From positions 998 through 64,997 of the forward strand of contig CAJJCC010000023.1 of the NCBI GenBank assembly GCA_905182585.1: a stretch of 64,000 nucleotides of DNA, given 5' to 3'. The notes under the pieces are model-generated. The model made no database searches. It was not told the DNA's origin and saw only the letters and a program-made list of their open reading frames with translations. Of the stretch, positions 16,605 through 57,826 are shown in pieces. Every line of letters starts with the position of its first letter. Positions within the stretch are counted from its first letter, which is position 1. The translations under genes and the position numbers were made by a program. Source of the stretch: an uncultured Flavobacteriales bacterium. Lineage in GTDB: Bacteria; Bacteroidota; Bacteroidia; Flavobacteriales_C; GCA-002722245.

Positions 16605-17042
16605 TTATTTAACTCCTGTACTGCCAAACCCGCCAGCACCTCTTCTTGTTTCACTTAATTCTTCAACTTTCTCCCAATTAGCTTGTTGGTATTCCGCAAT
16701 TACAAGTTGGGCGATTCTTTCACCATCTTCAACGATGAAGTCTTCGTTTGACAAATTTACCAATATAACTCCAATTTCCCCACGGTAATCTGCATCAATT
16801 GTTCCTGGTGCATTTAAAACAGTTACTCCTTTCTTATATGCCAAACCACTTCTTGGTCTAACTTGCGCCTCATAACCTGGTTGCAACGCAATGTGCAACC
16901 CAGTCTTAACTAACTCTCTTTCAAGAGGTTTAAGCACTAAAGGCGCGCTAATATTAGCTCTAATATCCATCCCTGCTGATTGTCCAGTTTCGTACTGAGG
17001 TAAATCATGCTTTGATTTATTTATTACTTGAATTGATGTCAT
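16605..17042 (-). CDS. dut: dUTP diphosphatase
   Basis: Conserved dUTPase motifs: [29 protein letters not shown] and the C-terminal [10 protein letters not shown]. Confidence 0.92.
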
Positions 17043-27293: not shown

Positions 27294-27491
27294 ATGATGA
27301 ACGCAGTATTGGCAGGAATGATAGGAATGCCCCAAGTATGGATTATTCTTGTAGTTGTTTTAGTTCTTTTTGGAGGAAGAAAGATTCCAGAATTAATGAA
27401 AGGTCTTGGAAAAGGCGTCAAAGAGTTTAAAAATGCAACGAACACGGAGGATGAAAATTCAAAAGGGGAAGTTGAAGAACCAAAAAAATAA
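27294..27491 (+). CDS. tatA: Twin-arginine translocase subunit TatA/TatE
   Basis: '[31 protein letters not shown]', the signature TM helix, hinge and amphipathic helix of TatA. The true start may be an internal Met. Confidence 0.85.
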
Positions 27492-27511
27492 TAATGAATT
27501 AGAATATTTAT

Positions 27512-27543
27512 AAAAGACTGTCCATTGAGACGGTCTTTTTTTT
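27512..27543 (+). terminator. Rho-independent terminator after tatA
   Basis: aaagactg / cggtcttt stem (one G-U pair) around the loop tccattgaga, followed by a T8 run. Confidence 0.6.
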
Positions 27544-27592
27544 GTCCTATTTTCTAGGAATAAAAAGTTTAAAATTCTTTATTTTTATAGTG

Positions 27593-29152
27593 ATGAATAC
27601 TCAATTGGATTTTTTAGTAATTGGTGGAGGAATAGCTGGACTAAGCTTTGCCTTAAAAGCTGCGGAAAAAGGAACCGTTGGAATAATTACTAAAGACGAT
27701 GCCAAAGAATCAAATACATCCTATGCGCAAGGCGGAATAGCTGGTGTGTGGAATGAACCGGATAGTATTGACAAACATATTGCTGATACGCTTGATGCTG
27801 GAGCTGGCCTAAATAATAAAACAATTGTTGAAATTGTGGTTAGGGAGGCTAAAGACCGAATTAATGAACTCATAGAATGGGGAACTCAATTTGATAAAAA
27901 TGCGTCTGGAGCTTATGATTTAGCTAAAGAAGGTGGTCATTCAGACAACCGAATATTACATCATAAAGACATTACAGGTAAAGAAATAATTAGAGCTTTA
28001 TTTAGTGCTATTCAAAAGCACCCGAACATTAAAATATTACAACATCATTTTGCCATTGATATTATTACACAACACCATCTAGGGATTAAAATAACCCGAA
28101 AGGATTCTGGTGTTGAGACTTATGGTGCATATGTCCTCAATAAAAAAACGAAAGAAATTAATACCGTACTTGCTAAAAATGTAATTATGGCAACGGGTGG
28201 AGCTGGATTAGCTTATAAAGTAACCACTAATCCATTAATTGCAACCGGTGACGGAATTGCAATGGCTTATAGGGCTAAAGCGGAAGTTAGAGATATGGAG
28301 TTTGTTCAATTTCATCCTACTTCATTACACAATCCAGGATCGTTTCCTTCTTTTTTAGTTTCCGAAGCTGTGAGAGGTTTTGGAGCTGTATTAAAAGATC
28401 AAGATGGAAAGGAGTTCATGAACAAATACGATGAACGTGGATCACTTGCTCCACGAGATATTGTTGCGCGTTCGATTGATGCTGAAATGAAAATTCATGG
28501 GGTTGACTTTATGTATTTAGATTGTACTAATCTAAATATGAAAAAATTCAAAGCTCACTTTCCAAATATTTATACTAAATGTAAATCACTTGGAATTGAT
28601 CCTGCATTTGATTTTATTCCTGTAGTTCCAGCTGCACATTACACTTGTGGCGGTATTGTAGTTGATGAACATGGTCAGTCATCTATTAAGGGCTTATATG
28701 CAATTGGCGAATGTGCTTGTACTGGTTTACATGGTGCTAATAGGTTAGCGAGTAATTCTTTGTTAGAAGCGATTGTATTTTCACATAGAGCCTTTTTAAA
28801 GGCTAGTGAAATCATATCTGAAGAAACTATTGCTGTTAATGTCCCGCAATGGGATGCATCAGGAACTGAAGCTCCAGAGGAGATGGTATTGATTACACAA
28901 AGTCAAAGAGAAGTTCAAGGAATTATGAGTAGTTACGTTGGGATTGTACGAAGCGACTTAAGGCTTAAACGTGCCATTGAACGATTGGAAATATTGTATC
29001 GTGAAGTTGAAGAGTTATATGAGAAAACAACGCCCTCGCAAAAGCTTTGTGAAACGCGTAACTTAATTAACATTGCTTACCTAATTATTAAGTTCGCATC
29101 CAACAGAAAGGAAAGTATTGGATTACATTATTCTCTCGATTATTCGAAGTGA
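27593..29152 (+). CDS. nadB: L-aspartate oxidase
   Basis: 'DFLVIGGGIAGLSFA' FAD motif, 'SYAQGGIAGV', 'HYTCGGIVVDEHGQSSIKGLYAIGECACTGLHGANRLASNSLLE'. The ATG at 27593 is preferred over the TTG at 27542, which lies inside the tatA terminator. Confidence 0.9.
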   Translation: MNTQLDFLVIGGGIAGLSFALKAAEKGTVGIITKDDAKESNTSYAQGGIAGVWNEPDSIDKHIADTLDAGAGLNNKTIVEIVVREAKDRINELIEWGTQFDKNASGAYDLAKEGGHSDNRILHHKDITGKEIIRALFSAIQKHPNIKILQHHFAIDIITQHHLGIKITRKDSGVETYGAYVLNKKTKEINTVLAKNVIMATGGAGLAYKVTTNPLIATGDGIAMAYRAKAEVRDMEFVQFHPTSLHNPGSFPSFLVSEAVRGFGAVLKDQDGKEFMNKYDERGSLAPRDIVARSIDAEMKIHGVDFMYLDCTNLNMKKFKAHFPNIYTKCKSLGIDPAFDFIPVVPAAHYTCGGIVVDEHGQSSIKGLYAIGECACTGLHGANRLASNSLLEAIVFSHRAFLKASEIISEETIAVNVPQWDASGTEAPEEMVLITQSQREVQGIMSSYVGIVRSDLRLKRAIERLEILYREVEELYEKTTPSQKLCETRNLINIAYLIIKFASNRKESIGLHYSLDYSK

Positions 29153-29158
29153 TGAATT

Positions 29159-29395
29159 CTAAAGATATTCACCTCTATCTGGTGTGAATTTATCTCTTAA
29201 CTCAATCATGTAATTCTTTGTTGTTTTAAGGTAAACAACATGATAATGAGACATGATTGTTTCAAATCCAACTTCTGAATTTTCAATCTTGTTTTCTTCG
29301 ATATAATTTTTAAGATTCCCGATTAAACCGTCGGTTACTTCTTGAGCGTCTAGGCTTCTTATATCCCAAATTAATTTTATTGCTTCCATATACAA
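29159..29395 (-). CDS. Hypothetical 78-aa protein, last gene of the CotH-like/VTC/DUF4956/ppa string
   Basis: Same strand, 8 nt downstream of ppa, with coding-like composition. No motif recognised. Confidence 0.4.
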   Translation of the reverse strand: MYMEAIKLIWDIRSLDAQEVTDGLIGNLKNYIEENKIENSEVGFETIMSHYHVVYLKTTKNYMIELRDKFTPDRGEYL

Positions 29396-29403
29396 AAAAT
29401 GGG

Positions 29404-30036
29404 CTATTTAGCCCACTTCATAATTTCAATATTTGTTAAGGAATCAGAATCCCAACCTTGGAATTCCATTTTTCCTGGTCCTTTGTACGACTCAAACCAT
29501 AAACTTACAATATCCAATACTGCTTTCGGACTTTGACTAAATTCATGAATTCCTAAAGTGTTTTTAGCTTCGTTTATTGGTACTGCAACAATTTTATGAT
29601 CTTCTTCACCTCTATCTAAAAGCCGAACAATTCCAATTGCTTTAATTGGGATAATCGTTCCTTGTTTAACAGCTTCTCCTAAAACTAAAACATCTAATGC
29701 GTCACCATCTCCACCTCTATCTTTATCCATTAAAGTTCCAGGAAGAAATCCGTAGTTCCCCGGGTAAGGTAAAAACTTTACAATTCGTTCTTTACCATTA
29801 ACGATTTCACATTCAAATTTATTAGAATCGTAATTGTATTCGTATTTATGACTTGTTCCAGCAGGAATTTCAATAACAGCAGTTAACTGCCCCAAATGAT
29901 TTTTAAGTGGTAATTTACCGAAGTTTAAGACTTCTTGAGGTTTAGCGACCTCCTGGTTTAATCCTTCAACACCAACTCCATCAAAAGAACAAGATGCTAA
30001 GCCAAGAGCAAAGAATAAAGCAGTAAGCAATCTCAT
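29404..30036 (-). CDS. ppa: Family I inorganic pyrophosphatase carrying a lipoprotein signal peptide
   Basis: PPase core 'EIPAGTSHKYEY', 'YPGNYGFLPGT', 'DGDALDVLVLG', 'HKIVAVP', preceded by MRLLTALFFALGLASC (L-A-S-C lipobox). Confidence 0.85.
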   Translation of the reverse strand: MRLLTALFFALGLASCSFDGVGVEGLNQEVAKPQEVLNFGKLPLKNHLGQLTAVIEIPAGTSHKYEYNYDSNKFECEIVNGKERIVKFLPYPGNYGFLPGTLMDKDRGGDGDALDVLVLGEAVKQGTIIPIKAIGIVRLLDRGEEDHKIVAVPINEAKNTLGIHEFSQSPKAVLDIVSLWFESYKGPGKMEFQGWDSDSLTNIEIMKWAK

Positions 30037-30037
30037 T

Positions 30038-30643
30038 TTATTTTTTTTCTTTATAATATATTTTAATTGAAGCTACATCTTTTAAGAAATCAACGTTTCC
30101 AATCGTAAATTTAAAAACATCTAAACCTGTTCTTTCTCTTAAGTCAGCCATTAACTCATCATTATGAACAGGCTTAATCATTTCGATTTTTTCGTAAACA
30201 ATTGTTTTACTTCTCTCATGATTATTAAACCAAATTAATTCAATCCCTAAAGTAACGCCTACAATTACAAAATCAGTAAATAGCAATTCAGCCATACTGA
30301 TTGACTTATTCGTTAAAGCATTAATCATTGCTAAACCAATAACAATAAATAAATAGGTCATTTCCTTAATTGGTAATGCCTCTGTACGATACCTTAAAAT
30401 ACCAAACACTGCAAATAACCCCATTGCAAATCCCATTTCCATAGGTACTTTTCTTAAAAGCACACAGATGAAGAAGGTCATCAGGTTAAACATAAAAAAC
30501 GTGAACAAGTAATCCTTGTCACGGTTATTACGGTAAAAAATAAACCTTATCGTAATGAATAAGAAAAGTAAGTTGATTGAAAATTTAAATATTAATTTTA
30601 AAAAATCATCACTATCAATTAGCGGTATTCCAAATATTTCCAT
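30038..30643 (-). CDS. DUF4956-like multi-pass membrane protein
   Basis: Four to five hydrophobic helices followed by a soluble ~60-aa tail. I recall the size and the position next to a VTC-domain gene as typical of the DUF4956/VTC pairing. Confidence 0.6.
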   Translation of the reverse strand: MEIFGIPLIDSDDFLKLIFKFSINLLFLFITIRFIFYRNNRDKDYLFTFFMFNLMTFFICVLLRKVPMEMGFAMGLFAVFGILRYRTEALPIKEMTYLFIVIGLAMINALTNKSISMAELLFTDFVIVGVTLGIELIWFNNHERSKTIVYEKIEMIKPVHNDELMADLRERTGLDVFKFTIGNVDFLKDVASIKIYYKEKK

Positions 30644-31406
30644 TTTTGTGTGTTTTATTTAAATACAGCAAGTTTTTTTTAAACTTATTATATTTCAATT
30701 GGGGATTTAAAAGAGCTGCCCCTGTAGCGTATTTACTAAAGCTAGCTTCTCTTATATTAAAGGTTTTTAAGATTTTCATTACCTGAGAATCTCTATTTAC
30801 ATTTTCTTGTTTTACTTCTGCAATTACCAAATTAGATAATTGTTTAACATTATCGTCCTTTGCAAACTGAAGATGAAAGTCGATTGTCAATCGCTCCTTA
30901 TCCGTATTACTTACTAATGTAATGCGGGAAAAATTATTTGTTAATACGTGTTGTAAATCAGAAACATCAAAGGGTGTTTTTTCATTTAAAAACGTTGTAT
31001 CGGTTGTATTGAATTCATTTTCACCTGCCCAAGCCTTTATTCTTGACTTCATGGTTTTACCCTTGTTCGTCTTGAATTTAACTTCTAAAAATGAAAGGTC
31101 AGATCCAACATATTCACGATATCTAATTTTATATCTATTTAACTTACCATTTTGGTGCGCTATATACATGTAAAAATCATTCGTATCAAAGTAATCTGTT
31201 TTGTAATTAGCGTATCTGTTACCAGAAATCTCTAATGACTTATAATGCGGTGCAACTTTCTCCAAAATTTGAGGCAGGAGTTCTGCTTCAAATACAAATT
31301 TTGTATCCGTTCTATTCATTAAACTTACTCCGTCCATCTCCTTAAGAGTGATAGGATCAAAAGTACCTAGTGAATCATGAATATTATTTAACAGTCTCTT
31401 TTCCAA
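30615..31406 (-). CDS. VTC-domain (CYTH-like triphosphate-tunnel, polyphosphate polymerase fold) protein
   Basis: 'ITLKEMDGVSLMNRTDTKFVF', 'YKIRYREYVGSDLSFLEVKFKTNKGKTMKSRI', 'RLTIDFHLQF' and 'VIAEVKQE': alternating basic/acidic beta-strands of the tunnel fold, as in bacterial VTC-domain proteins. No signal peptide. Confidence 0.7.
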   Translation of the reverse strand: MEKRLLNNIHDSLGTFDPITLKEMDGVSLMNRTDTKFVFEAELLPQILEKVAPHYKSLEISGNRYANYKTDYFDTNDFYMYIAHQNGKLNRYKIRYREYVGSDLSFLEVKFKTNKGKTMKSRIKAWAGENEFNTTDTTFLNEKTPFDVSDLQHVLTNNFSRITLVSNTDKERLTIDFHLQFAKDDNVKQLSNLVIAEVKQENVNRDSQVMKILKTFNIREASFSKYATGAALLNPQLKYNKFKKNLLYLNKTHKNGNIWNTAN

Positions 31407-33231
31407 ATTCGTTTCCGTATAAATACTTTCTTACGTCATCGCGGTAGTTGTGTATTTTTTCACCATCTACTTTAAGCGTTGACTTTTCTTCAATTAAATT
31501 TTCTTCTTTAAATTCTGTAAACGTAACATTATTAGCTACAATAGTAGAAGGTCCAAATTCTTGCTTCTTTTGAAAAGCACAATAAACTACCTCTGAATTT
31601 AAAATCTCCGAATTAGATATAATTACTTTTGAAAGATCTTTTGCTACAACTGCCAAAGAAGCTCCATCTATTTTAATGCTATCAACAGTCATTTTGCTGT
31701 CCTCTCCTGCGCTTAATGCCTTATCAGCAACCTTGTCAAACACACAACCTTTAACTACTATTGTACTCCCTGAAATATCGATTGCATCATTTCCTGCATT
31801 AATGAAATTACAATTTGTTAAAGTTCCATCACTAAAGTCTGCATCGAATGCATCTGAAAATGTATTTTTGAAAGTTGTATTCGAAACCTCAAATGGATAA
31901 GATCTAAATAAGTTCAGTCCATCTTCACTTTGATTATTTATAAAATAAGAATGATCAATTTTAACAGGAGACTCATAAAAAGTAACTGCACTTGGCAAGC
32001 TCCAGTTTCCATACTTTAAATTGGATTGATTTGAGAACTCTGTGTAATTAATTTGAGAATACGTTCCGGCGTTTATAACATGAATACCCATTCCTGTAGA
32101 ATCGGTGCTTATTACTTTGATCAGATCACCTTGCGATCCGTTGAAAAAGACTGGTGATTTTGAAACTATAAATCCTTTAGATTGGAAATCAACTTGATCT
32201 CCTGAATTGAAGTGAATTTTTGAACCCGCTGGAATGATTACTGCTTTATTAATAATCGTGTTTTTTGATTTTAATAAATACCCTGTATCAACTTTTTCAA
32301 AATACTCGTTAAACCCAGTAATATCCAAACAGCTAAGTAATCCTGAAATAGAATCGGCTGCTTCAATTTTTTTCAACGAAGGGAAATTTGAACTATAAAT
32401 ATGCTCCTTTAATTCGTTTTGTAAAAACTCTATCTCTGTAGAATTCATCACTAACCTTTCCACAACTTTTTGTTCAGTTAACAATTTTGTTTCAATTGCA
32501 TCTTGAGTCTTTTGAGCTGTGTAAGAAACAAAAGGTTCTAACAAATTAGAAACTGGATTTAAGTAATAATTTAAGGCTAAGTTTTTAGACCCTAACAAAT
32601 CAAACGATTTTTGGAGGGATAAAAACTGAGCTGTTTTACGTAAATCAAAAACACATTCTACATTCACTTTCCCATTTAACCAATCAGAAATTACAATTGA
32701 GGTTGTTTTTTTAATACTATCCTTATTTGCTCTTTTGGGACAAAACTCAACATTTAACTGATCCGAAAAGGTAAATAATAATCCTTCTCTATTTTTATTA
32801 CTTTCTATAATTCTTTTGTCAAACCCTTCCTGAAAGAACATAGTAGCAATACTATCTTGAAAAGAAACATTAAGGAACTTAGATTTTAACCCGATTAGCT
32901 TTTCAGCTTTTAAAGCTGCTTGAAATAAATCTATTTTTTGAAAATATGCGACACTATTAGAGTCTTGTATTGAATAAAGATCAAATACCTTTTTTGAAAA
33001 AATGGTATTTTTCTTGACTTTAATATTGAAACCGCCAACTATTGAAACCGGAACAATTTTGATTTCTTCTTTTCCAATAAATGCAAGGTGATTTTTATCC
33101 AAATTTTCCGATGAAAATGAAACTTTTAAGTCTTTCACTTTCTCGTCCTGCAATACAATCTCTCCTTTCTTTACGCAAGAAAAGAACAAAAAAGACACAA
33201 AAAGTAAAATTGAAAAAACTCTCAACATCAA
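31384..33231 (-). CDS. Lipoprotein with a CotH-like central region and a C-terminal right-handed beta-helix
   Basis: Lipobox (LFFSC). 'LKAEKLIGLKSKFLNVSFQDSIATMFFQEGFDKRIIESNKNREGLLFTF' aligns by eye with the CotH core seen in the paralog at 56234..56470. 'ALNYYLNPVSNLLEPFV' aligns with 'IRFYYNPVTKLIEPIPYD'. The C-terminal repeats (NCNFINAGNDAIDISGSTIVVKGCVFDKVADKALSAG) are parallel beta-helix-like. Confidence 0.55.
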   Translation of the reverse strand: MMLRVFSILLFVSFLFFSCVKKGEIVLQDEKVKDLKVSFSSENLDKNHLAFIGKEEIKIVPVSIVGGFNIKVKKNTIFSKKVFDLYSIQDSNSVAYFQKIDLFQAALKAEKLIGLKSKFLNVSFQDSIATMFFQEGFDKRIIESNKNREGLLFTFSDQLNVEFCPKRANKDSIKKTTSIVISDWLNGKVNVECVFDLRKTAQFLSLQKSFDLLGSKNLALNYYLNPVSNLLEPFVSYTAQKTQDAIETKLLTEQKVVERLVMNSTEIEFLQNELKEHIYSSNFPSLKKIEAADSISGLLSCLDITGFNEYFEKVDTGYLLKSKNTIINKAVIIPAGSKIHFNSGDQVDFQSKGFIVSKSPVFFNGSQGDLIKVISTDSTGMGIHVINAGTYSQINYTEFSNQSNLKYGNWSLPSAVTFYESPVKIDHSYFINNQSEDGLNLFRSYPFEVSNTTFKNTFSDAFDADFSDGTLTNCNFINAGNDAIDISGSTIVVKGCVFDKVADKALSAGEDSKMTVDSIKIDGASLAVVAKDLSKVIISNSEILNSEVVYCAFQKKQEFGPSTIVANNVTFTEFKEENLIEEKSTLKVDGEKIHNYRDDVRKYLYGNEFGKETVK

Positions 33232-33288: not shown

Positions 33289-34626
33289 TTAATCTAATAA
33301 AGCGTCTAGCTCTTTTTTCTGACGGTATACTTCCTTAATTTGGTCCAATGCTTCTAAATATTGATTTCTCTTTGGAAAACCAGGGTCATTAGGACTATTA
33401 TACCCTGCAGCTTCGGCTTCATCTCTCAATACTCTTACTTTCGCTCTAAGCGCTCTATCTTTCTGCTCAACTGCCGCTAATTTTTGCTCTAAAGTTTTTG
33501 AGTCATCTGCTTCGCTTTTTGATTTCTCATTCATTTGATCGTTAACTGAATCATCATAATAATCCATGTCACCATCCTCGCTAGATTCACCCTCTGTATT
33601 CTCTCGATCTCCTAATCGGTTTAACTGTTTTTCCAAACGCTCTAATTTTGATCGTCTCTTTTTCTTCAATTTTGGAGATCTCGATTTTGACTTAATATCA
33701 CCAAAAGTAGCTTTTACCATTAGCTCATGAGAACCATTACTAAAAACAGACAGTTCATTTTGTGTTATATCGTACGAGTATCCAAAAGTAAATTTCTTAT
33801 TTACTGTTTGATAACCTGCCATTACTGCAAAAGCGTCTTGAGTTCTTTTCATCAATCCTAAATAATAACTATCTTGATAAATCGCTCTAAATGCAATGTC
33901 TAACTGAGGAATTACAGGATAAGAGAATCTCATCATCATAGACGGCTCAACTCCAAAATCATCATTTACTTTAAAGGTATATCCACTATTTAAATAAAAA
34001 TGAGACGTAAGTCGACTTAACGATTGCGCTCCATCGTCAGAAAAATCTAAACGGCCTTGAATAAACTGTGGAACCGATAATCCGACATAAAATTTATCCC
34101 CATACCAATATCCACCAAAACCAAAATCAGGAATCACCTTATTTAAAAGTGTATTTACTAATGTTAAATCACCTGGGTCAGCTAATGTAATTTTAGTTCC
34201 ATCAACTCTATATTGTAATAACCCTCCACTTAATCCTAATGACAACTTAGTATTATCTGTTACTTGTAAATGATAAGCGTAAGATAAATACGCACCTGTT
34301 TTACTTGTTGGGCCAGTTACATCTGTATACAAGGCTCCTCCTAAACCAAAACTTTTAAACTTATGCGGACCATGAACTGACATTATATATGTACGCGGTG
34401 CATCTGTTACACCTTGCCATTGATACCTATAGTTTGCCGTCGCCGAAAAATTATCTTCTGTTCCAGTAACAGCAGGGTTAAATACATATTTGTTAAACAA
34501 ATATTGCGTAAATAATGGCAACTGCTGAGCCTTTGCTTGAAAGCCTATAATCAACAATAAAGTCGAAAGTAACCTGATATATATTCTCTTTTTATCCAAT
34601 GTTCTTGTTTTGCTTAAATTCATCAC
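33289..34626 (-). CDS. PorP/SprF-family T9SS outer-membrane protein with a long charged C-terminal extension
   Basis: Hallmark N-terminus 'AQQLPLFTQYLFNKYVFNPAVTG' and a beta-barrel body. It lies 7 nt downstream of a type B CTD giant gene, as with sprB-sprF. The last ~135 aa are K/R/E/D-rich. Confidence 0.85.
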   Translation of the reverse strand: MMNLSKTRTLDKKRIYIRLLSTLLLIIGFQAKAQQLPLFTQYLFNKYVFNPAVTGTEDNFSATANYRYQWQGVTDAPRTYIMSVHGPHKFKSFGLGGALYTDVTGPTSKTGAYLSYAYHLQVTDNTKLSLGLSGGLLQYRVDGTKITLADPGDLTLVNTLLNKVIPDFGFGGYWYGDKFYVGLSVPQFIQGRLDFSDDGAQSLSRLTSHFYLNSGYTFKVNDDFGVEPSMMMRFSYPVIPQLDIAFRAIYQDSYYLGLMKRTQDAFAVMAGYQTVNKKFTFGYSYDITQNELSVFSNGSHELMVKATFGDIKSKSRSPKLKKKRRSKLERLEKQLNRLGDRENTEGESSEDGDMDYYDDSVNDQMNEKSKSEADDSKTLEQKLAAVEQKDRALRAKVRVLRDEAEAAGYNSPNDPGFPKRNQYLEALDQIKEVYRQKKELDALLD

Positions 34627-34633
34627 TTTCCTT

Positions 34634-37600
34634 TTATCTCATTAAAGTGATTGGTCCAGTGAATTTTTCTTGATTAGGTCCTAAATCAATCAAGTAATAA
34701 TAGGTTCCTACTGGTAATTTCTTACCATTCTTAATTCCATTCCATTGATCTACGTATCTTTTACTTTCAAATACTTTTTGCCCCCATCTATTAAATATTT
34801 TAACATTTGCATCAGGAAATTCATCAATTAATTGAATTACCCAAAATTCATTCAATCCGTCTCCATTAGGTGTAATTCCATCAGGGAAGACAATTGTAGT
34901 TGCAACATCAATTCTAACAGAAGCGGTATCTGAACAACCGTTTAGGTCTGTTCCGGTTACAAAATAAGTAACCCCTTCTGTGGCTGAAACAATTGGGTTT
35001 TGAATTGTAGGGTCATTTAATCCAATTGGAGGGTTCCAATCGTAAATAGCACCCATTCCTGCTCCAGAAACTGTAAGCTGTGCTGTAGTATTTTCAAGAA
35101 TCAAATTATCTGTAGTAAATGCCACTACATCCGGTAATCCATTTACATTAACAATTACCGTGTCAGCATCCGAACATCCGTTATTAAATACAGTTAATAT
35201 ATACTCTGTAGTTATTGATGGATCTACATAATTAGAATCGGATGAGCCTCCTTCAGACCATGAATACAGTACTCCACCTGTTCCAACTAACAATACACTG
35301 TCCTCATTACAGATTGTTATATCATCGCCAGCATTTGCATTAATAACATTCACCTCAGTTATCGTTGCTGTATCTAAATGAGTACATCCATTTTCATCTA
35401 TAATTGTCACTTCATACGCTCCGATTAATAAATTTTCGATATCCTCATCTGAACTAGCATATCCATTAGATGAAGTCCAACTATAAGAATAATTTGCTAT
35501 TCCTCCGCTTACTGACAAGTCTACTGACCCATCCGCTAAGTTTGTACAATTTGCTTGGCTTTCAATCATTGTCGTGAAAATAGAATCAGGTTGATCTATA
35601 TGTACATTGCTTGAATCCTTACATCCATTATTATCGATAATAACTGCTTTATAAATTTCAGCACATAACCCTGTTGCTGTATATGAAGTTTGATTTAAAT
35701 CATCATTCCAAACATATATATATGGACTAGTTCCTCCAAAAGGCGAAATTGTTGCATAACCATCACAAACTCCGAAACAATCCAGGTTAGCACTGTCAAT
35801 AATAGATGATGTTAAAACAGGTGGCTCAATTACCATTCCTGAAGCTCCTGCATTACAATTTTCAAAATCGCTAACAGTTAAAATATAATTTCCATCGCAT
35901 AGATCTTTTATAGAATCTGTTGATTCACCAGACTGCCATGAATAAGTATATGGCTCAACACCTCCAACTACTGTTGCAACTGCTACACCATCACATATAC
36001 CATTACAACTGATGTTCGTAATATCTACAGATACTGTTAACAGACTGAAATCATTGATCGTAACTTCAGCTGTATCTTTACAACCCATAGAATCTGTAAC
36101 CTCTGCATGATATATTCCAATACATTGATTATTAATTGTACTGGATATTAAATTTCCTGCGTCATACCAATTATAAGAATAAGGTGCTGTACCTCCAGTT
36201 TCTCCCACCGTTGCAGCTCCATCACAAACATTAGCACAAACAATGTGTGAAGTATCTGTAATTGATGCAAGTAACGAATCTGGTTGTGTTAAATTAATAA
36301 CAACACTATCAACACATAAACTATCATCTGTTATTAGCACTGTATATTCATCTGCGCATAAAGCTGTTCTGGACAATAAATTACTTTCATCTTCCCAGGT
36401 AAACAAAAGACTTCCTGATCCACCGTTTGCAGAAACAGTTGCTGCTCCATCGCATGTTCCATTACAAGAAACATCGGTTTGAGCATCTAATGAAACATTA
36501 ATTTTTGATGGCTGAATTAATGATATCGTATCTTCCAATTGACAACCATTTACATCTTCACCTAATACATAATAAGTAGTCGCACATAAATTATATGCTG
36601 TATCGTTAACTTGTGAACCTGATGAATTGTACCATGTAAATTGATAAGGAGAAGTCCCTCCATTTCCTTGAGCAAAAGCCTTTCCATCACATGATCCAAA
36701 ACATTTTAGATTAAGACTATCCGTAATTGTTGTAATAAAAACTGCTGGTTCTTTAACTTCGAAACTATCAACTAAGAAGCATCCATTTGCATCAGAAACA
36801 GTATCTGTATAATATCCTGGACAAAGACTTGTTAAGTCATCCGCAGTTGATCCTTGCGTCCATGAGTGAGTATACGGGGTTGTGCCTCCCAAAGGTGTAA
36901 CCGTTATTGTTCCGTTACAATCACCATTACAACTCACACTTGTTCCGCTAAATTCTGCAGTAAAGTTGTTTTGATCTAATATTTCAACAGAATCAGTTAA
37001 AGTACATCCAGCTCCATCGGTAACTTGGTACGTTTGGAAACCGGAACATAAGTTAATTGCTCCTGGTGAAGTTTGTCCATCTTCCCATAAATAAGAATAA
37101 CCACCACCAATAGTTCCTCCTGAAACGGTTAAACTCGCTTTTCCAATACAGAATCCAGTACAAAGTACATGTTGTAAATCTGATGTACTTGCAATTATTG
37201 TAATCGGTTCTGATAGTGTGACAGAAGCTTGACCTGAACATCCTTTCGCATCTGTTACGGTCACCGTATAAGTTGCTGCAACTAAATCCTTAACAGTATC
37301 TGTAGTTTGAGTTCTTCCATCATTCCAAACAATATCATAGGGAGCTGTTCCGCCTGAATAAAGTACGGTTGCCCAACCTTCAGCAAAACCATTACAAACA
37401 ATGTCTGAACTATCTCCAATTGAAACAAGTAATTCAGCTGGTTCAATAATGTTTACATTGGTAAAAGCTAAACACCCGTTTCCATCCGTTACTTGACCAA
37501 TTGTTGTTCCTGAACATAAACCAGTAATCACAGAATCGGTGGTTAAAGATGGATCATTCCATAAATAAGTATATGCGCCAACACCTCCTTGAGCTGTAAT

Positions 37601-40600
37601 CGCTGCATTACCATCACAAACACCATTACATGTAATATCTACTATAGAATCAATAGCAACTGTTAAATTACTAGGGCCGGTAATAAAAACGACTGCTGTA
37701 TCACTACAACCGCTAGCATCTATAACCGTCACAGTATATTGAGCAGCACATAAATCAGTTGCTGTACTAGTTGTTTGGCTCGACCAGTCATTCCAAGAAT
37801 AAGTATAATTTCCAGTTCCTCCAATCGTAGCTACTGATGCTTCACCTGAACATGGTGAAGAACAACCTGTTGAGCTTGTATCTAAAAGAGAAGCGACTAA
37901 AGCGTCAGGTTCTGTAATCGCTACTTGAGCAGTGGCTAAACATCCATTAACATCTTCAACCAAAACAGAATATAATCCAGCACAAAGGTTTTGTAATGTA
38001 TCATTTAGTGTTATTGAAGAATCATCCCATGTATACGTGTATGGAGCAGACCCTGCAACTCCAGTAGCAATTGCAATCGCATCACATAATCCACTACATG
38101 AAACCATTGTCGTATCTAAAATCCCAGCTGTTAATCCACCAGGGCCAGTCGTTACATGCTGAATTGTATCAGTACAACCATTTCCATCTATAATTTCAAC
38201 ATGATAAACTGCTGCACATAACGCAAGAGCTAAACTGTCTGTTTGAGCTCCCGGAGCATCATACCAATTATAGGAATAAGGCAGCGTTCCACCTACAGGA
38301 GTAACAAATGCAGTTCCGTCACAAACGGTACAACTCGTAGTGGTTGAATTTGTAATACTATTTGTAAATAGTGTCGGCTCAGTAATTATCACTTCGGAAG
38401 TATCATTACAACCATTTGCATCTATAATTTCAACGTTATAAGTTCCAGCTGGTAAATTTGTAGCAGTAGAATCTGTTTGAAATCCTGGCGTATTAAACCA
38501 ACTATAGGAATACGGTCGTGTTCCTCCAGTTGCCGTAACTGTTGCCGAACCCGTACCTATTCCTCCACACAATAAATGTTTCACATCTGTTATCGAAGAA
38601 GCTAATACGTTTGGTTCGGTAATCACCATTGAACTAAAATCCGAACAATTATTCGTGTCTGTAATTAATACATTATAAGTTCCTGGTCCTTTTCCTGAAA
38701 TCGTTTTAGAACTTTCTCCACTACTCCATGAATATTCGTAAGGAGAAGTTCCTCCAGTTGGAAGAGTGCTTAATTCAGCATCATTTGATCCAAAACAGGA
38801 AACATGATTAAATGGATTAACAAAAGCTACTAAATTAGCTGGTTCAGTGATCGTATCGTTTTCAACTAAAACACAGCCATTTAGATCATTTACTTCAATT
38901 TCGATTGGCCCAACACATAGTGAGTCTATGTAAGTTGTATCAACTGGCAAAGAAGGATCATTCCAATTAATAGAATAAGGTGAAGTTCCTCCTGTAATAA
39001 TCGCTTCGATAGATCCATTACAAATTCCATTACAACTTATATTCGTATCAACTAAAACAATATTAATAGCTGTTGGCTCTGTAATTGTAACATTTAAATT
39101 ATGTGTACATCCAATGGCGTCAGAAATATTTACGGTATAAGATCCTGCACAGAGACCGTTAACTAATGAATCAGTTGTTGACTCCGGATCATTCCAAGTA
39201 AATAAATAAGGTTGAACTCCATTTTCGGCCCTTGCTAAAGCCGAACCATTACACATCATATTACATGAAACCATATTGGTATCAACTATAGAAGTTATAA
39301 AGTTTGAAGTATCTCTTATTATAACATAAGAAGTGTCGGTACAACCATTAAAGTCGGTTGTATTAACAGTATAATTACCGGCACATAGTCCAGTAGCCGT
39401 ACTATCGGTTTGATTTAATGGATCATTCCATGAATACGTGTAAGGAGCAGTTCCTCCTAATGGAGTAATAATCGCAACACCTGTACACAAACAACTTACA
39501 TGTGATGTGTCCGTAATTGATGAAACTAACAATAACGGCTCGGTAATCGCAACACTATCCGTATCAGAACATCCATAAACATCGGTAACAATAGCTGTAT
39601 AAATTCCAGGAGTTAAGCCTGTAACTGAGTCTGTTGTTGCATTTGCAACATCATTCCATTGATAATTATATGGTAGTGTTCCTCCAGTCGTCTCAGACCA
39701 AACTACTCCATTTCCTACGCCATTACAACTTATATTAACACTATCTAAGCTGGAAGCTAATATGGTAGGCTCTATTACGAGAACAGAAACAGTATCCAAA
39801 CAACCGTTTGCATCTGAAATAGTATTGGTATATGTTCCAATTCCAACATTATAAACTGTATCGTTTACACTAGTTGTATCCCAGGAATGAAGGTAAGGAA
39901 CAGTTCCTCCTGAAACACCAACCCAAGCAACACCGTTGGTATCACCGTTGCAAGATGGACTTGTAAACATTGGTGTTCCAATTAAAGAGTCCGGTTCGTT
40001 AATCATTACATTTTCAAACCTAACACAACCTTCACTATCAGTCACTGTTACATTTATAACTCCGGCGCAAACTCCAGTTACAGTTGAATCCGTTGTAATT
40101 AATGGATCCGACCAAGAATAAGTATAAGGAGTTTTACCTAAAGAAGGGGTTACGATCGCTTCTCCATTACATATACTATTACAAGCAACATGCGTAGTAT
40201 CTGTAATGGAAATTGTAAATAGAGAGGTATCCCTTATCGTTACAAGTGATGTATCAAAACAACCATTTATATCGGCAACTACAACTTCATAACCACCTGT
40301 ACAAAGCCCAATAGCTGCGGAATCAGTTTGAAATCCTAAATCATTCCATAAGTAAGTATATCCTCCAGCTCCACCAACTGGAGTTACAATAGCAGAAGCA
40401 TTGCAAATACAATTTGCATGAACGGTATCGGTAATGGAAGTCGTTAATTCAGTAGGTGAAGTAAATATTACTTGATTCGCGTCTGTACAACCAAAACTAT
40501 CTGTAATAACAACCTTAAAGGTATCTGCTGTCATATTTGATAAAGTATCACCTGAGTAAATAATTGGATCACCCCATTGATAAGAGTAAGGAGCTGTTCC

Positions 40601-43600
40601 TCCCAAACCTAATCCATAAGCCATAGCTGTACTATCACCAAAACACAAAACATTATTAATTACGCTTGGCATAACTTGCAACGAGTCGGGATGAAAAATA
40701 TATGTAATCAGAGTGTCTGCACAACCTCTAGCGTCCGTAATTGTATCTGTGTAAATCCCTTCACATAAATTAATTACCGTTGAAGATTTGGAACCAGTTG
40801 TCCAACTATGAGTATATGGAGCAGTTCCACCTCCAGGAGTAACCGTTATTTGACCATCACAGTATGCATAACAAGAAGCTTGAGTAGAGTCTTTAAAGTG
40901 GTTCCAAACTTCCGGTTCAGAAATTATAATTTCTGTTGTATCCGAACAACCATTTAAATCAATAACCGCAACTCGATAAGTTCCCGCTAATAATCCAATA
41001 GCAGTGTCATTTGTTTGATTGGATACATCATTCCACCAATATGTATACGGTAGAGTACCTCCCAATCCCGTAACAACTCCACCACCGTCACTTCCTTGAT
41101 TACAATTAACATTAGTCGTGTCAATTATAGAGGCAATAATCGACACCGGTTGTGTTACAATTACGTGAGCCGTATCTAAACATCCATTAATATCGGCAAC
41201 CTTAACACTAAAAGTGTCTGCACAAATATTATATAAAGAATCATTATCTATATTTCCATTTTCAAACCAATCATAGGTATAAGAACCTGTTCCTCCAGTA
41301 ACACTTATAAAAGCTACTCCATCACAAATCCCAGAACATGTTGATGGAACTGAGTCCTCCTCAATCGCAATAGTTGCAGGTGCGTTTATTACAACTTCTC
41401 CTGTATCGATACAACCTTTAGCATCAATTACTTCTATATGATAAGTCCCAGCCAACAAACCTGATGCAACTGAATCTAAATCACCTCCAGCATCATACCA
41501 ATTATATGCAAAACCTGGAGTTCCACCTCTTGGTGTAACTATAGCTTGACCGTTAGTACTGTAACTACAAACAACATCCGTTGTATCTGTTATAATCGCT
41601 TGTAAACTATCTGGCTCAGTTACAATAAAAGTGAACGTATCTAAACAACCTGCTCCATCGGTAACCGTATCAATGTAAGTTCCTGCGCAAATATCTAATA
41701 AAAAAGTATCTGTAGAAGCAACATTCCAGGAATGTGTATAACCAGATCCTTTCGTCCCTCCTGTTAAATCCAAACTTATAAACCCATCACATACACCATT
41801 ACAAGATGGCGTAACTAAGCTATCATTTGGTGTCATTAAATCTGGTTCTTCTACGGTTACTAAAACAGTATCCGAACAACCATTCACATCAATTACAGCA
41901 GCTTGATAAACACCTCCTAATAAATTTACAGCCGTGTCATTTTCTTGGTTAATCGCATCATCCCACCAGTACGTGTAAGGTAAGGTTCCGCCTAAACCGC
42001 CCACAACAGCAGAGCCGTCATTTCCTCCATGACAAGTTACTGCTGAGGAATCAACTGCTGATGCGATAATAGTAACTGGTTCAGTAACCTCAACTTCTAA
42101 GGTATCTATGCAACCATTTATATCAGTTACCTCAACATCATAAAAACCTGCACATAAATTGGAAGCGGTATCGTTTGTTTGGTTACCTGCATTATACCAA
42201 TTATAAAGATACGGTGTAACACCTCCTGATGGAATAACAATTGCTGAACCAGTACAAATTCCCGAACAAGTAGAAACAATTGAATCAGGAACCAAGTTAA
42301 GCGCTGCAGGGGAATTAATTACAACTTCTCCAGTATCAATACAACCATTAAAATCTTTAACCTCTACATGATAAGTTCCTGGTATAATACCAGAGGCAAC
42401 AGAGTCGTTATCTCCCCCTGCAACATCATACCAATCATACGAATACAAGGCCGTTCCTCCAATAGGAGTAACTATAGCTTGACCGTTTGCACTGTAACTA
42501 CAAACAGCATCCGTTGTATCTGTTATAATCGCTTGTAAACTATCTGGCTCAGTTACAATAAAAGTGAACGTATCTAAACACCCTGCTCCATCGGTAACCG
42601 TATCAACGTAAGTTCCTGCGCAAATATCTAATAAGAAAGTATCTGTAGAAGCAACATTCCAAGAATGTATATAACCAGACCCTTTTGTCCCTCCTGTTAA
42701 ATCTAAAGTTATAAACCCATCACATACACCATTACAAGATGGGGTAACTAAGCTATCATTTGGTGTCATTAAACCTGGCTCTTCTACGGTTATCAAAACA
42801 GTATCTGAGCAACCATTTACATCAATTACAGCAGCTTGATAAACACCTCCTAATAAATTTACAGCGGTGTCATTTTCTTGGTTAATCGCATCATTCCACC
42901 AGTACGTGTAAGGCAGAGTTCCGCCTGAACCGCCTACAACAGCCGAACCATTATCTCCTCCATTACAAGTTGCTGCTGAAGAATCAACTGCTAATGCAAT
43001 AAGAGAAACAGGTTCGGTGACAATAACATCTGCTGTGTCGATACAGCCAAGAGCATCAGTCACCTCAACACGAAACGTATCAGCACATAAATTATATATA
43101 GAATCATTATTTATATTATCATTTTCGAACCAATCGTAGGAGTATGGGGCCTCTCCACCATCAACACTGATGATTGCAATCCCATCACAAATTCCTGAAC
43201 AACTTGAAACAACTGAATCACTTGTTATTAACACATCACTAGATTGCACTAATGAAACAACTCCTGTATCTATACATCCACTTGCATCTGTCACTTCAAC
43301 GTGATAAGTACCAATCGGTAACCCAGTTGCATTGGAGTCAGTTTGACTACCAGGAGCATCATACCAGTCATAAGTATAAGGCGCTGTCCCTCCCAAAGGC
43401 GTTGTAATTGCCAATCCTGTTGAATCTCCAAAACAAACTATATGCGTTGTATCTGTTATAATCGCTTGTAAACTATCTGGCTCAGTTACAATTACTGAAA
43501 AAGTATCTATACATCCAATACCATCCGTAATTTCAAAGTTATAACTCCCTGCTGATAAACCCGTTATTGTATCATTGGTTTGATTACCTTCTTCATACCA

Positions 43601-46600
43601 ATCATATGTAAATATTGGTATTCCACCACTTGCGCTTGCTATTGCTATTCCATCAGCCGATCCAAAACAAAAAGTAGGAACAGAATCAGTATGTGCAACT
43701 ATTTTTGGTGATGTGGAAATAATTGTAAAATTAGAAGTATCCTTACATCCATTAGCATCGGTTACCTCTACACTATTTAAACCTACGCACAAATTAGCAC
43801 CTGAACTATCTATATCAGGAACTGAAGCTGTAAACCAATCGTAAGTATAAGGAAAAGTTCCTCCTGAAGGGGTTACAACAGCATCACCTGAACAATCATT
43901 ATAACATAAAATATGATTGGTATCTGTAATAGAAGAAGTAACAACTATTGGAGCTCCCACATCTATACCAGCTGTATCTAGGCAACCATTTGCATCTGTT
44001 ATTTCTGCTCGGTACGTTCCTGCACAAACGTTTTTAATCGTATCTGTAATTTGATTATCTGCATTTAACCAATCAACAAAATATGGTGAAATACCCCCGG
44101 AATATTCCGTCCAAGCAACGCCATCGCATGCCCCATAACAAGACGCTTCGAATGAATTTGCTGAAGAAATCAATTTTAAAGGCTCTCGGATTTCTACTTC
44201 AGCGGTGTCTTTACAACCTTTTAAATCTGTGAGTTCAACATGGTATAAACCTGCGCATAAATTAGAAACTGAATTAAGAACTGGAGATCCTGGAACATCA
44301 TACCATAACCTTTGATAAGTTGTTGTTCCACCACTCGCTAGAGCTAAAGCATATCCAGAACAATCTCCGAAACACGAATTATGAATGGTATCTGATTCAA
44401 TATACGCCACAACAGGCTCTGGATTTGTAATGTTTACTTCAGCTGTATCTACACAACCGTTTGAATCTATTACCTCACAATAATAAATACCCGTAGAAAG
44501 CCCTGTAATTGTGTCGTTGGTTAAATTTCCAAAATTATACCAATCATAAGTGTAAGGTTTAATTCCTCCAATTACTGTAATACTTGCGCTACTTGTATCG
44601 AAATGACCACAAGATGTTATATTAGTATTTACAATTAAACTTAATTCATCTGGAGCATTAATTATAATAGTAGAAGTATCTAAACAACCATTTGCATCTT
44701 CGATTTTAACGTTATAAGTACCAGCACACAAATTTTCTGCTTTAGTATCAGAATCACTATCTGGTGAATTATACCAGTCATATGTTAAAATTCCAGTTCC
44801 TCCTAAAGCAGAAACAGTTGCATCACCATTACATTCTCCAAAACAAAGATTATTAGTTGTGTCAGTAATTGATGATGTTAATTCTAATGCTGGTTCAGTT
44901 AAATTAACCTGCCCTGAATCTGAACAGCCATTAAAATCTATTATTTCAAATTTCCACGTTCCTGAGCAAAGATTCCCAATACTATCTCCTGTTGGTGTTC
45001 CCGGAACATCGAACCAAGTAACTGTATAAGGAAATTCACCCCCAAGTGGAGTCATTTTGGCTGTACCATTACAGTCACCTTTGCATAAAATATCTACTTC
45101 AGAGTCTACTGTATGTTCTAATGAATCAGGTGATTCTATTGTAATTAAAACAGTGTCTAAACACCCTAAACTGTCGTTTACCTTTACATGATATTCACCT
45201 GCACATTGTCCCGATACAAGTTGACTTGAAGGCGAACTAACAACATCATACCAACTATATTCGTACGGACTTGTTCCTCCATTAGGAATCACACTCATTA
45301 TACCATTACAGTCACCAAAGCAACTTAACTGAGTAGCCTCATCAATTGTTACAATTAAAGAATCTGGTTGTGTAATAACAACCAAATCCGTATCCGAACA
45401 CCCGTTAATATCAGTAACCTCAACATAATAATTCCCTAAACAAAGATTAAAAACAGTATCGGTAGACTGGTTTCCAGCATTATACCAATTAAGCGTCAAG
45501 TCGCCATTACCTCCTGAATAACTCGCTGTAGCCCAAGCATTACATAAACCGCTACATGTAACGTTTAATGAATCACTAACTAAAATATTAACTTCGGCGT
45601 CTGGTTCAGTGATTACAACTGTTGAAGTATCCACACAACCATTAACATCCCTAACTCTCACATTATAAGTACCGGCACACAAATCAGTAACTGTCCTAGT
45701 TGTTGGTGATCCAGATATATTATACCATAGATAATCATAATCTCCGGTCCCACCTTGCGCAGTTACCTCCGCCTCACCTGTACATGTATTTTTACAAAGT
45801 ACATGTATAGTATCAGAAATAGAAGATGTTAGCGCCTCAGCTGGCTGAGTGATAGATACAGGAACCGTATCTGAACATCCGTTATCGTCAGATACCTCAA
45901 CTCTAAATTCGCCTGCAGGAAGTAAATAATGATTAGCTATTGCTGGATTTGTAGGTGCATCAAACCAATTGTAAGTATAAAGTCCTGAAGAGCTTGTACC
46001 TCCAGTTTGAGTAATAGAAGCTTCAGCCACTGTATCTCCATAACAGAGAATATTTGTTGAAGATAAAACACTAGCAACTAAAGTGTCAGGTTCTATAATT
46101 GTAGATGTGATCGTATCTAAACATCCATTTGCATCCTTAATTTTTACATTATAAGTTCCGTAGCACAAACCTATTACGTCTTCTGAAGTTGGAGCTCCGG
46201 GCACATCATACCAATCAAAAGTATAAGCACTCGTTCCACCAGTTGGTGTTAAATCAATCGATCCATCACAAGCACTTTTACAGTTTACCATCGAATTTGT
46301 AGCTGACCCAGACAATATAGTTGGTTCTGTAATAGTAACTTCAGACGCAGACATACAGCCGTTGGAATCTGTTACTTCTACATTATAGGTTCCCAAACAA
46401 AGCGACGAAGCTGTGGAGTCTGTATCGCCACCTGGTACATTATACCAATCGTAAGTATACCCACCTACACCTCCAACTGGAGTTACAATTGCGATTCCAC
46501 CACAATCTTCAAAACATAAATTATGTGTAATGTTTGTTATGCTTGTAGATATTACAGTCGATGGTTGTTGTACAGTAACCGTTGATGTGTCTAAGCAACC

Positions 46601-54086: not shown

Positions 54087-54491
54087 ATGAAATTTTTAAC
54101 CTTTAGCCTGCTTATTTTAGCCTGCTTTACCAAATTAAGCATAACCTCTTTTAAGGAGCAAGTAGAATACCCAGGAATACAAACTGGAAGAACCTGGGCA
54201 AATTACAAAGTAGAAATAGCCAATCCCAAAAACGAAGTAATTAAAGTAGAAGGTATTTGGGTAAAACAACGCTGGATCAACTTCTTGCCCAAAAGCTATT
54301 CAGGTAATCCAATCACTATTTTAACAAGTGATCAATACATCAATCTAGATACATTAAAAGCCAAAATTGAAGTCCCTACGAAAAATGAAAAACACAAAGC
54401 TGTAGTCAAATATCATTTTAAAGGCAAATCGAAAGTCAGGTTTTTGGGCGTTTCTGAAATTATAAAAGAAGAACCTTTAGCGCGCCCATAA
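54087..54491 (+). CDS. Hypothetical secreted 134-aa protein
   Basis: N-terminal signal peptide (MKFLTFSLLILACFTKLS) and coding-like composition. Confidence 0.5.
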   Translation: MKFLTFSLLILACFTKLSITSFKEQVEYPGIQTGRTWANYKVEIANPKNEVIKVEGIWVKQRWINFLPKSYSGNPITILTSDQYINLDTLKAKIEVPTKNEKHKAVVKYHFKGKSKVRFLGVSEIIKEEPLARP

Positions 54492-54498
54492 AAATAAC

Positions 54499-57733: not shown

Positions 57734-57826
57734 GATTTAATATTTTACGCGTTAAAATCTAAAAAGTTGTATTTTTCACGATTTAAACACGTAATTAAAC
57801 GTACTAAATATATAATATACAGCATT

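Follow-up and report, generated by a model that had tools for sequence, protein, structure and literature searches.

A string of minus-strand genes is located in a 64,000-nucleotide stretch (hereafter the window) of contig CAJJCC010000023.1, derived from an uncultured Flavobacteriales bacterium (assembly GCA_905182585.1; contig positions 998 to 64,997). These genes encode, in the order of transcription, a large lipoprotein with a CotH-like fold and a β-helix (gene 1), a VTC-domain protein, a DUF4956 membrane protein and a family I inorganic pyrophosphatase (ppa), followed by a small open reading frame (ORF) of 78 amino acids (Table 1). An ORF scan reproduced all five reading frames at the coordinates given in a preliminary description of this DNA, and the overlaps and distances reported there likewise match: the gene 1 stop overlaps the VTC start by 23 nt and the VTC stop overlaps the DUF4956 start by 29 nt, while gaps of 1 nt, 8 nt and 57 nt separate DUF4956 from ppa, ppa from the small ORF, and the preceding PorP/SprF-encoding gene from gene 1, respectively. 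Public gene calls place the start of gene 1 at an ATG three bases in (614 aa) and that of the small ORF at an ATG (76 aa), and the TTG start of the VTC gene is backed by N-terminal homology to orthologs with an ATG start. The same DNA is carried by marine metagenome contigs, TARA samples included.

Table 1. Features of the cassette locus and its immediate surroundings (positions in the window)
Feature	Position	Strand	Basis
Conserved protein without family, 78 aa, probably cytoplasmic	29159..29395	-	homolog conservation
Terminator-like hairpin overlapping the ppa stop codon	29396..29419	-	consensus pattern match only
Family I inorganic pyrophosphatase (ppa), lipoprotein signal, 210 aa	29404..30036	-	Pfam PF00719
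DUF4956 inner-membrane protein, 201 aa	30038..30643	-	Pfam PF16316
VTC-domain protein, 263 aa, cytoplasmic	30615..31406	-	Pfam PF09359
Gene 1, 615-aa lipoprotein (CotH-fold pseudokinase and β-helix)	31384..33231	-	ORF scan, Foldseek, Pfam
PorP/SprF	33289-34626	-	Pfam PorP_SprF match

The first four genes constitute a conserved autonomous cassette that spans the inner membrane. Their order is retained in 7/7 cassette-bearing lineages, namely that of the window and those of loci L007, L008/9, L092, L096, L097 and L098, with junctions that overlap or nearly abut, while gene 1 is only 40-50% identical among these lineages and the flanking genes differ. The predicted compartments are upheld by the same comparison. 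In all seven lineages, the signal peptides of the gene 1 and ppa products terminate at a lipobox Cys (FFSC and LASC in the window, respectively), while the VTC protein has no signal peptide in any of them and no hydrophobic segment. Two lipoproteins, one a pseudokinase/β-helix protein and the other a pyrophosphatase, are thus placed outside the cytoplasm, with VTC inside and DUF4956 in the inner membrane; the host being Gram-negative, the outer proteins are therefore periplasmic or outer-membrane lipoproteins. Short or intermediate forms of gene 1 also occur as orphans without VTC (P0040 and P0090). The view that these genes are adjacent by chance or local synteny only, without forming a functional unit, could draw on the unrelated passengers that neighbor them (SprB/PorP) and on the failure to assign a promoter in the 57-nt gap. 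It is effectively refuted, and highly improbable, given the same order with overlaps in seven lineages and the conservation of the VTC-DUF4956 pair across Bacteroidota and other phyla. The cassette is a marine Flavobacteriales variant of a widespread core module composed of VTC and DUF4956. In other bacteria, this core is accompanied by secreted CotH kinases, DUF2490 outer-membrane barrels and small exported proteins, and is frequently located within exopolysaccharide loci.

Components of the four-gene cassette

The gene 1 product comprises an N-terminal domain of CotH fold (residues ~30-300) and a C-terminal right-handed β-helix (residues 319-615). Its sole Pfam match is Beta_helix (residues 361-516), and the CotH profile (PF08757) gave no match at E ≤ 10 to either the whole protein or its N-terminal 360 amino acids. 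The best Protein Data Bank (PDB) match of its AlphaFold2 (AF2) model (predicted local distance difference test, pLDDT: 90; predicted template modelling score, pTM: 0.87) in Foldseek is the Bacillus cereus CotH kinase (5jd9; E: 8.7e-8; probability: 1.00; target-normalised template modelling score: 0.42), with 5jda also among the top matches. Homologs of gene 1 fall into two classes, short forms of 560-630 aa and long forms of ~850-890 aa which contain both a Pfam CotH domain and a β-helix. The C-terminal half of gene 1 shares about 40% identity with that of the long forms, residues 68-234 align with the long-form CotH domain (27% identity; E: about 1e-13), and the motifs ‘QEgFdKRiiESN..REG’ and ‘YYlNPvsnLlEP’ are common to gene 1 and CotH-domain proteins.

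The catalytic aspartate of B. subtilis CotH is D228 and the metal-binding one D251 (PMC7821199). The corresponding columns were located with the aid of the B. cereus sequence and of canonical CotH domains validated with Pfam, and were compared in 17 canonical, 28 long and 31 short forms. The catalytic-loop Asn is present in 14/17, 26/28 and 1/31 of these, respectively, and the metal-binding Asp/Glu in 16/17, 28/28 and 0/31. Gene 1 of the window carries Ala and Tyr at these two columns, and Lys at the column of the candidate catalytic-loop Asp of the long forms, an equivalence drawn by eye in a column that is shifted relative to canonical CotH. The N-lobe ‘R.KG...K.S’ segment is furthermore deleted, as are some 25 residues surrounding the metal-binding Asp. 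The homology of gene 1 to CotH is real, as is the fold that its N-domain shares with the Bacillus kinase (5jd9/5jda), but the domain is a degenerate pseudokinase. The earlier label of a CotH-like atypical kinase thus holds for the fold and fails for the kinase, and since it has neither the catalytic Asn nor the metal-binding Asp and has lost part of the N-lobe, it is not to be assumed that this protein uses polyphosphate (polyP) as a kinase.

A second, long-form CotH/β-helix gene is located at positions 54490-56763 (minus strand), in the stretch of lowest GC content in the window (0.287), where frameshifts and in-frame stops have broken it into at least four ORF fragments. These align to positions ~135-700 of intact long forms with 25-40% identity, and the pseudogene is probably a decayed ancestor or paralog of cassette gene 1. 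It adjoins a block of AlgI/AlgJ-like polysaccharide O-acylation genes (56807-62160, minus strand) encoding a MORN-repeat protein (308 aa), an SGNH/GDSL-MBOAT fusion (968 aa) and a GDSL protein (475 aa). An MBOAT gene likewise follows the intact cassette in L007.

The VTC protein, a triphosphate-tunnel protein, matches the PF09359 profile over nearly its full length (positions 1-234 of 235; Bitscore: 85.2, cutoff 23; E: 6.6e-24). Together with the lack of a signal in seven lineages, this confirms the family assignment and supports the cytoplasmic placement that had been proposed for it. Among 33 VTC homologs, 17 basic and six acidic residues are invariant and follow alternating strand patterns (RxKxRxR, ExKxK, ExK and ERxTxD). 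The resulting dense Arg/Lys/Glu ladder (R32, K36, R91, K93, R95, R97, E108, K110, K112, R161, E171, R172, D176, E197, K199 and K225) appears typical of tunnel enzymes. A profile built from the 33 sequences weakly reaches the non-catalytic yeast Vtc2 (3g3o; E: 0.0077) over the ‘SR...ERLTID’ strands. A single-sequence alignment of VTC with Vtc4 was rejected, having produced spurious repeat matches only, and a relationship to CYTH was not reproduced with Pfam.

The DUF4956 protein is the best-conserved product of the cassette (63-89% identity between lineages) and covers the full PF16316 profile (positions 1-169; Bitscore: 169, cutoff 30.6; E: 1e-49), which, along with five predicted helices, bears out its assignment and multi-pass nature. 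The AF2 model is of moderate quality (pLDDT: 68; pTM: 0.41), the underlying alignment being shallow (63-89% identity), and consists of five helices followed by a small β-α-β-β C-terminal domain (residues 144-198). Positive-inside statistics over 75 DUF4956 members gave positive values for loop 1 (+1.85), loop 3 (+1.47) and the segment after helix 5 (+1.21), and negative or neutral ones for the N-terminus (-2.12), loop 2 (-0.09) and loop 4 (-0.48). Because the former three segments are net positive, a topology with an external N-terminus, five transmembrane helices and a cytoplasmic C-terminus is predicted. Loop 3, on the predicted cytoplasmic face, contains an invariant R84-Y85-R86-T87 motif, R84 and R86 being present in 75/75 members.

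The ppa product is a family I inorganic pyrophosphatase, as had been proposed (PF00719; Bitscore: 112.9, cutoff 23.5; E: 1.6e-32). In common with solved enzymes of the family, e.g. 1qez (E: 9e-19), 3tr4 and 1i40 of Escherichia coli, it has the full catalytic core and the catalytic signature (D-x-D-x-x-D motif and Lys/Tyr/Asp core), and the motifs EIPAG..KYEY, YP.NYGF, DGDALDV, EEDHKIVAV and YK are retained relative to 1qez and 3tr4. Position 4 of the PROSITE-type motif is occupied by Ala rather than Pro/Glu. The protein scores far below the cutoff of the NCBIfam equivalog for the housekeeping cytoplasmic enzyme (76.7 bits against 200) and is therefore a divergent member of the family, set apart by its lipoprotein export and its genetic tie to the VTC/DUF4956 cassette. 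The concern that its signal peptide might be the artefact of a wrong start codon is removed by the conservation of the signal and Cys in seven lineages and by the next downstream Met, which would cut into the catalytic core; no core-sparing start codon eliminates the signal.

The VTC-DUF4956 module and its partners

The wider distribution of the module was surveyed in species-representative genomes, where the best 80 loci among the matches listed, all from Bacteroidota, were annotated with purpose-built hidden Markov models (HMMs), that for CotH being built from Pfam-validated domain segments only; the frequencies below describe this sample only. The gene directly upstream of DUF4956 is VTC in 69/74 loci, where the two ORFs overlap in most cases, and the one directly downstream of it is DUF2490 in 43/76. 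CotH, in any form, occurs within 8 kb in 13/80 loci and a pyrophosphatase in 0/80. The core is VTC plus DUF4956, to which CotH is an optional addition, and only the short-form clade has the pyrophosphatase. The earlier suggestion that four families co-occur as one system hence stands for the core pair and, in the seven cassette lineages, for the full order, while CotH and the pyrophosphatase are no constant members. The DUF4956 family as a whole comprises 1419 representatives (E ≤ 1e-3) among 1.84 billion cluster representatives.

Every recurrent partner of the core is extracytoplasmic, namely DUF2490, CotH, the lipoprotein pyrophosphatase and two small exported families, c1 and c2. DUF2490 proteins are putative porins of the outer membrane (TC 1.B.81; PMC4827864). 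The CotH neighbors often bear a type IX secretion system (T9SS) sorting tail. Family c1 comprises lipoproteins of ~130 aa with the motif ‘GGTS.I.GKV...YDD..T..DG.Y.F’ at 29 loci (L012-L091), and family c2 signal-peptide proteins of ~140 aa with ‘YD..GN’ repeats at 14 loci, as found by HMM search. Neither belongs to a Pfam family, and both are encoded directly upstream of VTC on the same strand (e.g. L037:3767-4165 and L089:6798-7205). The window clade shares with the VTC-DUF4956-DUF2490 module (e.g. B. thetaiotaomicron BT3498-99) the translationally coupled core, the DUF4956 proteins of the module being 45-61% identical to that of the window, but lacks the DUF2490 barrel, whose place downstream of DUF4956 is held by the pyrophosphatase, and has the pseudokinase/β-helix lipoprotein upstream instead of c1 and c2. 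In the distant loci L010 and L095, a long-form CotH/β-helix gene is located between DUF4956 and VTC.

Three single ORFs join DUF4956 to CotH (P0374; 671 aa) or to DUF2490 (P0394 and P0455; 460 and 422 aa). They are either real fusions with an extra transmembrane segment or the result of lost stop codons between adjacent genes. Their linkers keep a hydrophobic segment resembling a signal peptide, transmembrane helix or lipobox, as would be expected if the C-terminus of DUF4956 is cytoplasmic and the partner external. For the same reason the fusions were rejected as proof of a complex and were counted as evidence of adjacency and topology.

The locus and survey together define a minimal core of two small genes, whose translational coupling is seen in over 90% of loci, with interchangeable extracytoplasmic partners. 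Neither the Bacteroidota core module as such, nor the short pseudokinase/β-helix form, the cassette-linked lipoprotein pyrophosphatase or the small accessory proteins were found to be described in the searchable literature. For the B. thetaiotaomicron genes BT3498-99 (DUF4956 and DUF2490), an iron stimulon table records a -7.6-fold change under iron limitation (p: 0.175; PMC10434189), beyond which no expression data for the VTC-DUF4956 module were found. Genes for PorU (Peptidase_C25, ~1290 aa) and PorV of the T9SS are located on the opposite strand, just downstream of VTC-DUF4956(-DUF2490), in 15-16 survey loci (e.g. L015, L019 and L025), where they sit among ispF, cdd and pyruvate dehydrogenase genes; this adjacency probably represents lineage synteny. 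A typical Bacteroidota VTC-DUF4956 pair, with a DUF4956 protein 54% identical to that of the window, was also observed in a metagenome-assembled genome labelled ‘Methanobacteriota archaeon’ (L026; PBNL01000005.1), a contig that is most likely mis-binned.

Proposed function of the cassette

In our view, the cassette is best explained by the synthesis of polyphosphate with coupled export, a proposal that is put forward tentatively and judged somewhat less likely than not. According to this reading, the VTC protein would polymerise the γ-phosphate of nucleoside triphosphates into polyP, or a short phosphoanhydride chain, at the membrane, and an oligomer of DUF4956 would take the chain at its arginine-lined cytoplasmic face and pass it across the inner membrane, as in the eukaryotic VTC complex. 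Outside, the β-helix/CotH-like lipoprotein would bind or handle the chain. Where CotH is catalytically intact, the chain could serve as phosphoryl donor in a compartment free of ATP; in the window clade, where the kinase is dead, the lipoprotein pyrophosphatase would turn the exported phosphoanhydride back into phosphate, suggesting a periplasmic phosphate/cation reserve or matrix component rather than a kinase substrate. Synthesis coupled to export would account for the association of VTC and DUF4956 with secreted CotH kinases, for which ATP is not available outside the cell, for the frequent presence of an outer-membrane barrel as third member, and for the addition of a phosphoanhydride hydrolase where the kinase decayed.

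In eukaryotes, the catalytic tunnel of Vtc4 and a membrane pore formed by Vtc1/2/3/4 couple polyP synthesis to membrane transit (PMC9911596). The bacterial pair resembles this complex in the PF09359 family, in the combination of a cytoplasmic tunnel enzyme with a membrane component and in the basic residues at the cytoplasmic membrane face. The soluble family I pyrophosphatase beyond the membrane furthermore parallels the acidocalcisomal pyrophosphatase (PDB matches 5cux and 5cuu), which hydrolyses polyP. The bacterial system differs in that there is no SPX sensor domain, the tunnel protein itself does not enter the membrane, whereas the eukaryotic tunnel is covalently attached to a VTC membrane domain of three transmembrane helices, and the membrane partner belongs to an unrelated family of five helices and an α/β domain. 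A more specific version, according to which VTC and DUF4956 form a polyP synthase-translocase, as a third route to polyP beside PPK1 and PPK2, that feeds secreted CotH kinases, with exit of the polymer via DUF2490 and an acidocalcisome-like periplasmic phosphate reserve in the window clade, is more doubtful.

Several observations weigh against synthesis coupled to export. A residue-level match of the VTC protein to the catalytic residues of Vtc4 (R264/R266/E426) was not obtained from the profile, which reached Vtc2 only, so that the enzyme may be a polymerase or a triphosphatase. The VTC-like channel role earlier ascribed to DUF4956 found no support: Foldseek searches with the model (pLDDT: 68) returned no significant neighbor, be it the VTC channel, any other channel or another fold, and the sequence of the protein is unrelated to the membrane domain of eukaryotic VTC and has no other Pfam match at E ≤ 10, so that its function as a channel is a conjecture. 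No biochemical data on bacterial VTC or DUF4956 proteins were found in the searchable literature. In the window, the cassette is without an outer-membrane component, and a pathway with a dead kinase and an outside hydrolase looks futile unless storage or matrix binding is its purpose. Finally, the authors who described the related genes of Streptococcus intermedius proposed that the polymer stays cytoplasmic (bioRxiv 10.1101/2024.04.20.589940).

In an alternative without export, the VTC protein would form or break down a phosphoanhydride in the cytoplasm (polyP, triphosphate or nucleotide) and DUF4956 would be only a membrane anchor or, through its ACT-like domain, a ligand-sensing regulator; the exported proteins would be co-regulated but act on other substrates, the pyrophosphatase, for instance, scavenging environmental pyrophosphate. 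The small size of DUF4956 and its lack of detectable likeness to a channel or transporter are in keeping with this, as are the faint and non-significant Foldseek matches of its C-terminal domain to ACT, NikR and AcuB (E ≥ 0.03). The same preprint read the protein as an MgtC-like transmembrane region with an ACT domain (bioRxiv 10.1101/2024.04.20.589940). No MgtC or ACT Pfam match to DUF4956 was found at E ≤ 10. Enzymes of the tunnel fold (CYTH/TTM superfamily) include hydrolases and cyclases, and a marine bacterium could scavenge phosphorus with an exported pyrophosphatase alone. This alternative leaves unexplained the translational coupling of a cytoplasmic enzyme to a membrane protein (69/74 loci), the extracytoplasmic nature of all other recurrent partners and the presence of the pyrophosphatase in 7/7 short-form cassettes against 0/80 other loci, and we regard it as quite unlikely.

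An accessory set of CotH, VTC (named ‘poly-phosphate polymerase’) and DUF4956 genes has been reported for the pel operons of Gram-positive bacteria (Whitfield et al. 2020, PMC7112168), and SIR_1592-1594 of S. intermedius represent the same triad (bioRxiv 10.1101/2024.04.20.589940). The composition of the cassette is therefore not unrecorded, although its experimental characterisation was not found in the searchable literature. In both systems, adjacent genes of one orientation encode a CotH-related protein that is secreted, a VTC-domain protein that stays in the cytoplasm and a multi-pass DUF4956 protein whose C-terminal domain is cytoplasmic. The system described here differs in its lack of contiguity with pelDEADAFG genes, in a CotH domain that is degenerate and fused to a β-helix where the pel-associated protein has FN3, in the additional lipoprotein pyrophosphatase and in its Gram-negative Bacteroidota host. 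No pel-type genes were found among the window ORFs of at least 150 aa, the nearest glycan genes being those for a flippase (17039-18553) and acyltransferases (57827-62160). According to the preprint, no instance of the triad was found beyond pel operons (bioRxiv 10.1101/2024.04.20.589940); contrary to this, it occurs outside such operons in our survey and in L010 and L095. The triad is also listed in NELoc-2 of Clostridium perfringens, along with a glycosyltransferase (GT) and a polysaccharide deacetylase.

These associations favor a role in exopolysaccharide modification, in which the β-helix would bind or cleave a surface glycan, active CotH would phosphorylate glycan or matrix proteins, and VTC and DUF4956 would supply or regulate the phosphoryl donor; the window clade would have kept the glycan handling, with the pyrophosphatase clearing a by-product. 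This overlaps with synthesis coupled to export but places the glycan, not polyP, at the center. Besides the pel and NELoc-2 contexts, it is consistent with the matches of the β-helix half to polysaccharide-processing enzymes (GH28 polygalacturonases, GH87, AlgG epimerase, RbmB and phage tailspikes), weak as these are (E: about 1e-4; template modelling score: 0.2-0.4), and with the higher conservation of the β-helix (47-61% identity between lineages) than of the CotH-like N-domain (30-39%), many invariant Asp, Lys and Glu residues being stacked on successive rungs. It is also consistent with the glycan genes that surround some loci: the L007 and L092 cassettes are flanked by GT1, GT4, MBOAT, Acyl_transf_3 and Polysacc_synt genes, the L095 long form sits amid a polysaccharide biosynthesis cluster (flippase/GT4/GT2/Bac_transf/DegT), and the decayed long-form paralog of the window adjoins the AlgI/AlgJ-like acyltransferases. 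However, the cassettes of the window, L008, L096, L097 and L098 have no adjoining glycan synthesis genes, 67/80 survey loci lack a CotH or β-helix protein within 8 kb, no known glycosidase or lyase motif was established in the β-helix, and the invariant core of tunnel enzyme and membrane protein is left unexplained. A primary role in glycan modification is judged unlikely.

The locus bears on how secreted CotH kinases may obtain a phosphoryl donor outside the cell and on whether bacteria may possess a dedicated machine that places polyP in the periplasm or on the surface. Should the core be a synthase-translocase, it would represent a new bacterial polyP pathway, explain why these genes are repeatedly attached to loci for biofilm polysaccharides (pel, NELoc-2 and capsule-like clusters) and be a candidate means by which marine bacteria buffer phosphate outside the cell. 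Otherwise, the strong linkage of VTC and DUF4956 still marks an envelope function worth solving, for which cultivable hosts are available in Maribacter, Carboxylicivirga marina and B. thetaiotaomicron (BT3498-99).

Flanking genes and local context

The string of five genes originally proposed reduces to the four-gene cassette. A hairpin with a 10-bp stem, including four G-C pairs, followed by a T-run extends across the ppa stop codon and thus lies between ppa and the 78-aa ORF. It is the strongest of five terminator-like sites in 6 kb, where shuffled sequences give a mean of 2.2, and is likely the 3′ end of the cassette transcript. Homologs of the 78-aa protein (42-49% identity; 30 invariant columns) are encoded at the other end of the cassette, directly upstream of gene 1, in L092, L096 and L097. 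The protein belongs to no Pfam, NCBIfam or PADLOC family. A strain variant (L004) differs in the ORF by 15 synonymous and five non-synonymous changes; this synonymous excess, together with the conserved homologs, identifies the ORF as a real gene, whose product is probably a loosely attached cytoplasmic accessory. A role in anti-phage defence was rejected, as PADLOC gave no match save a marginal one of this ORF to TmtA (E: 0.007).

No promoter could be assigned upstream of gene 1; sigma-70-like sites are not enriched (28 found against 26.7 expected), and no TAnnTTTG box occurs in the gap between the PorP/SprF gene and gene 1. A link of the cassette to SprB/PorP or gliding was likewise rejected: the upstream genes differ in the six other cassette lineages, and since the flanks vary among all seven, the adjacency to SprB/PorP is incidental. 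At the 3′ end, the L-aspartate oxidase gene nadB (27294-29152, plus strand) converges on the cassette, as it does in L092 and L097, with tatA beyond nadB in the window and L092. This position of nadB is therefore ancestral in a subset of the clade, whereas different genes flank the cassettes of L007, L008, L096 and L098. Two giant T9SS cargo proteins unrelated to the cassette are also encoded on the minus strand of the window. The first (4360-11622), 2420 aa in length, bears a CHU_C sorting domain; the second (34634-48274), which precedes PorP/SprF as its partner, is a SprB-like repeat protein of 4546 aa.

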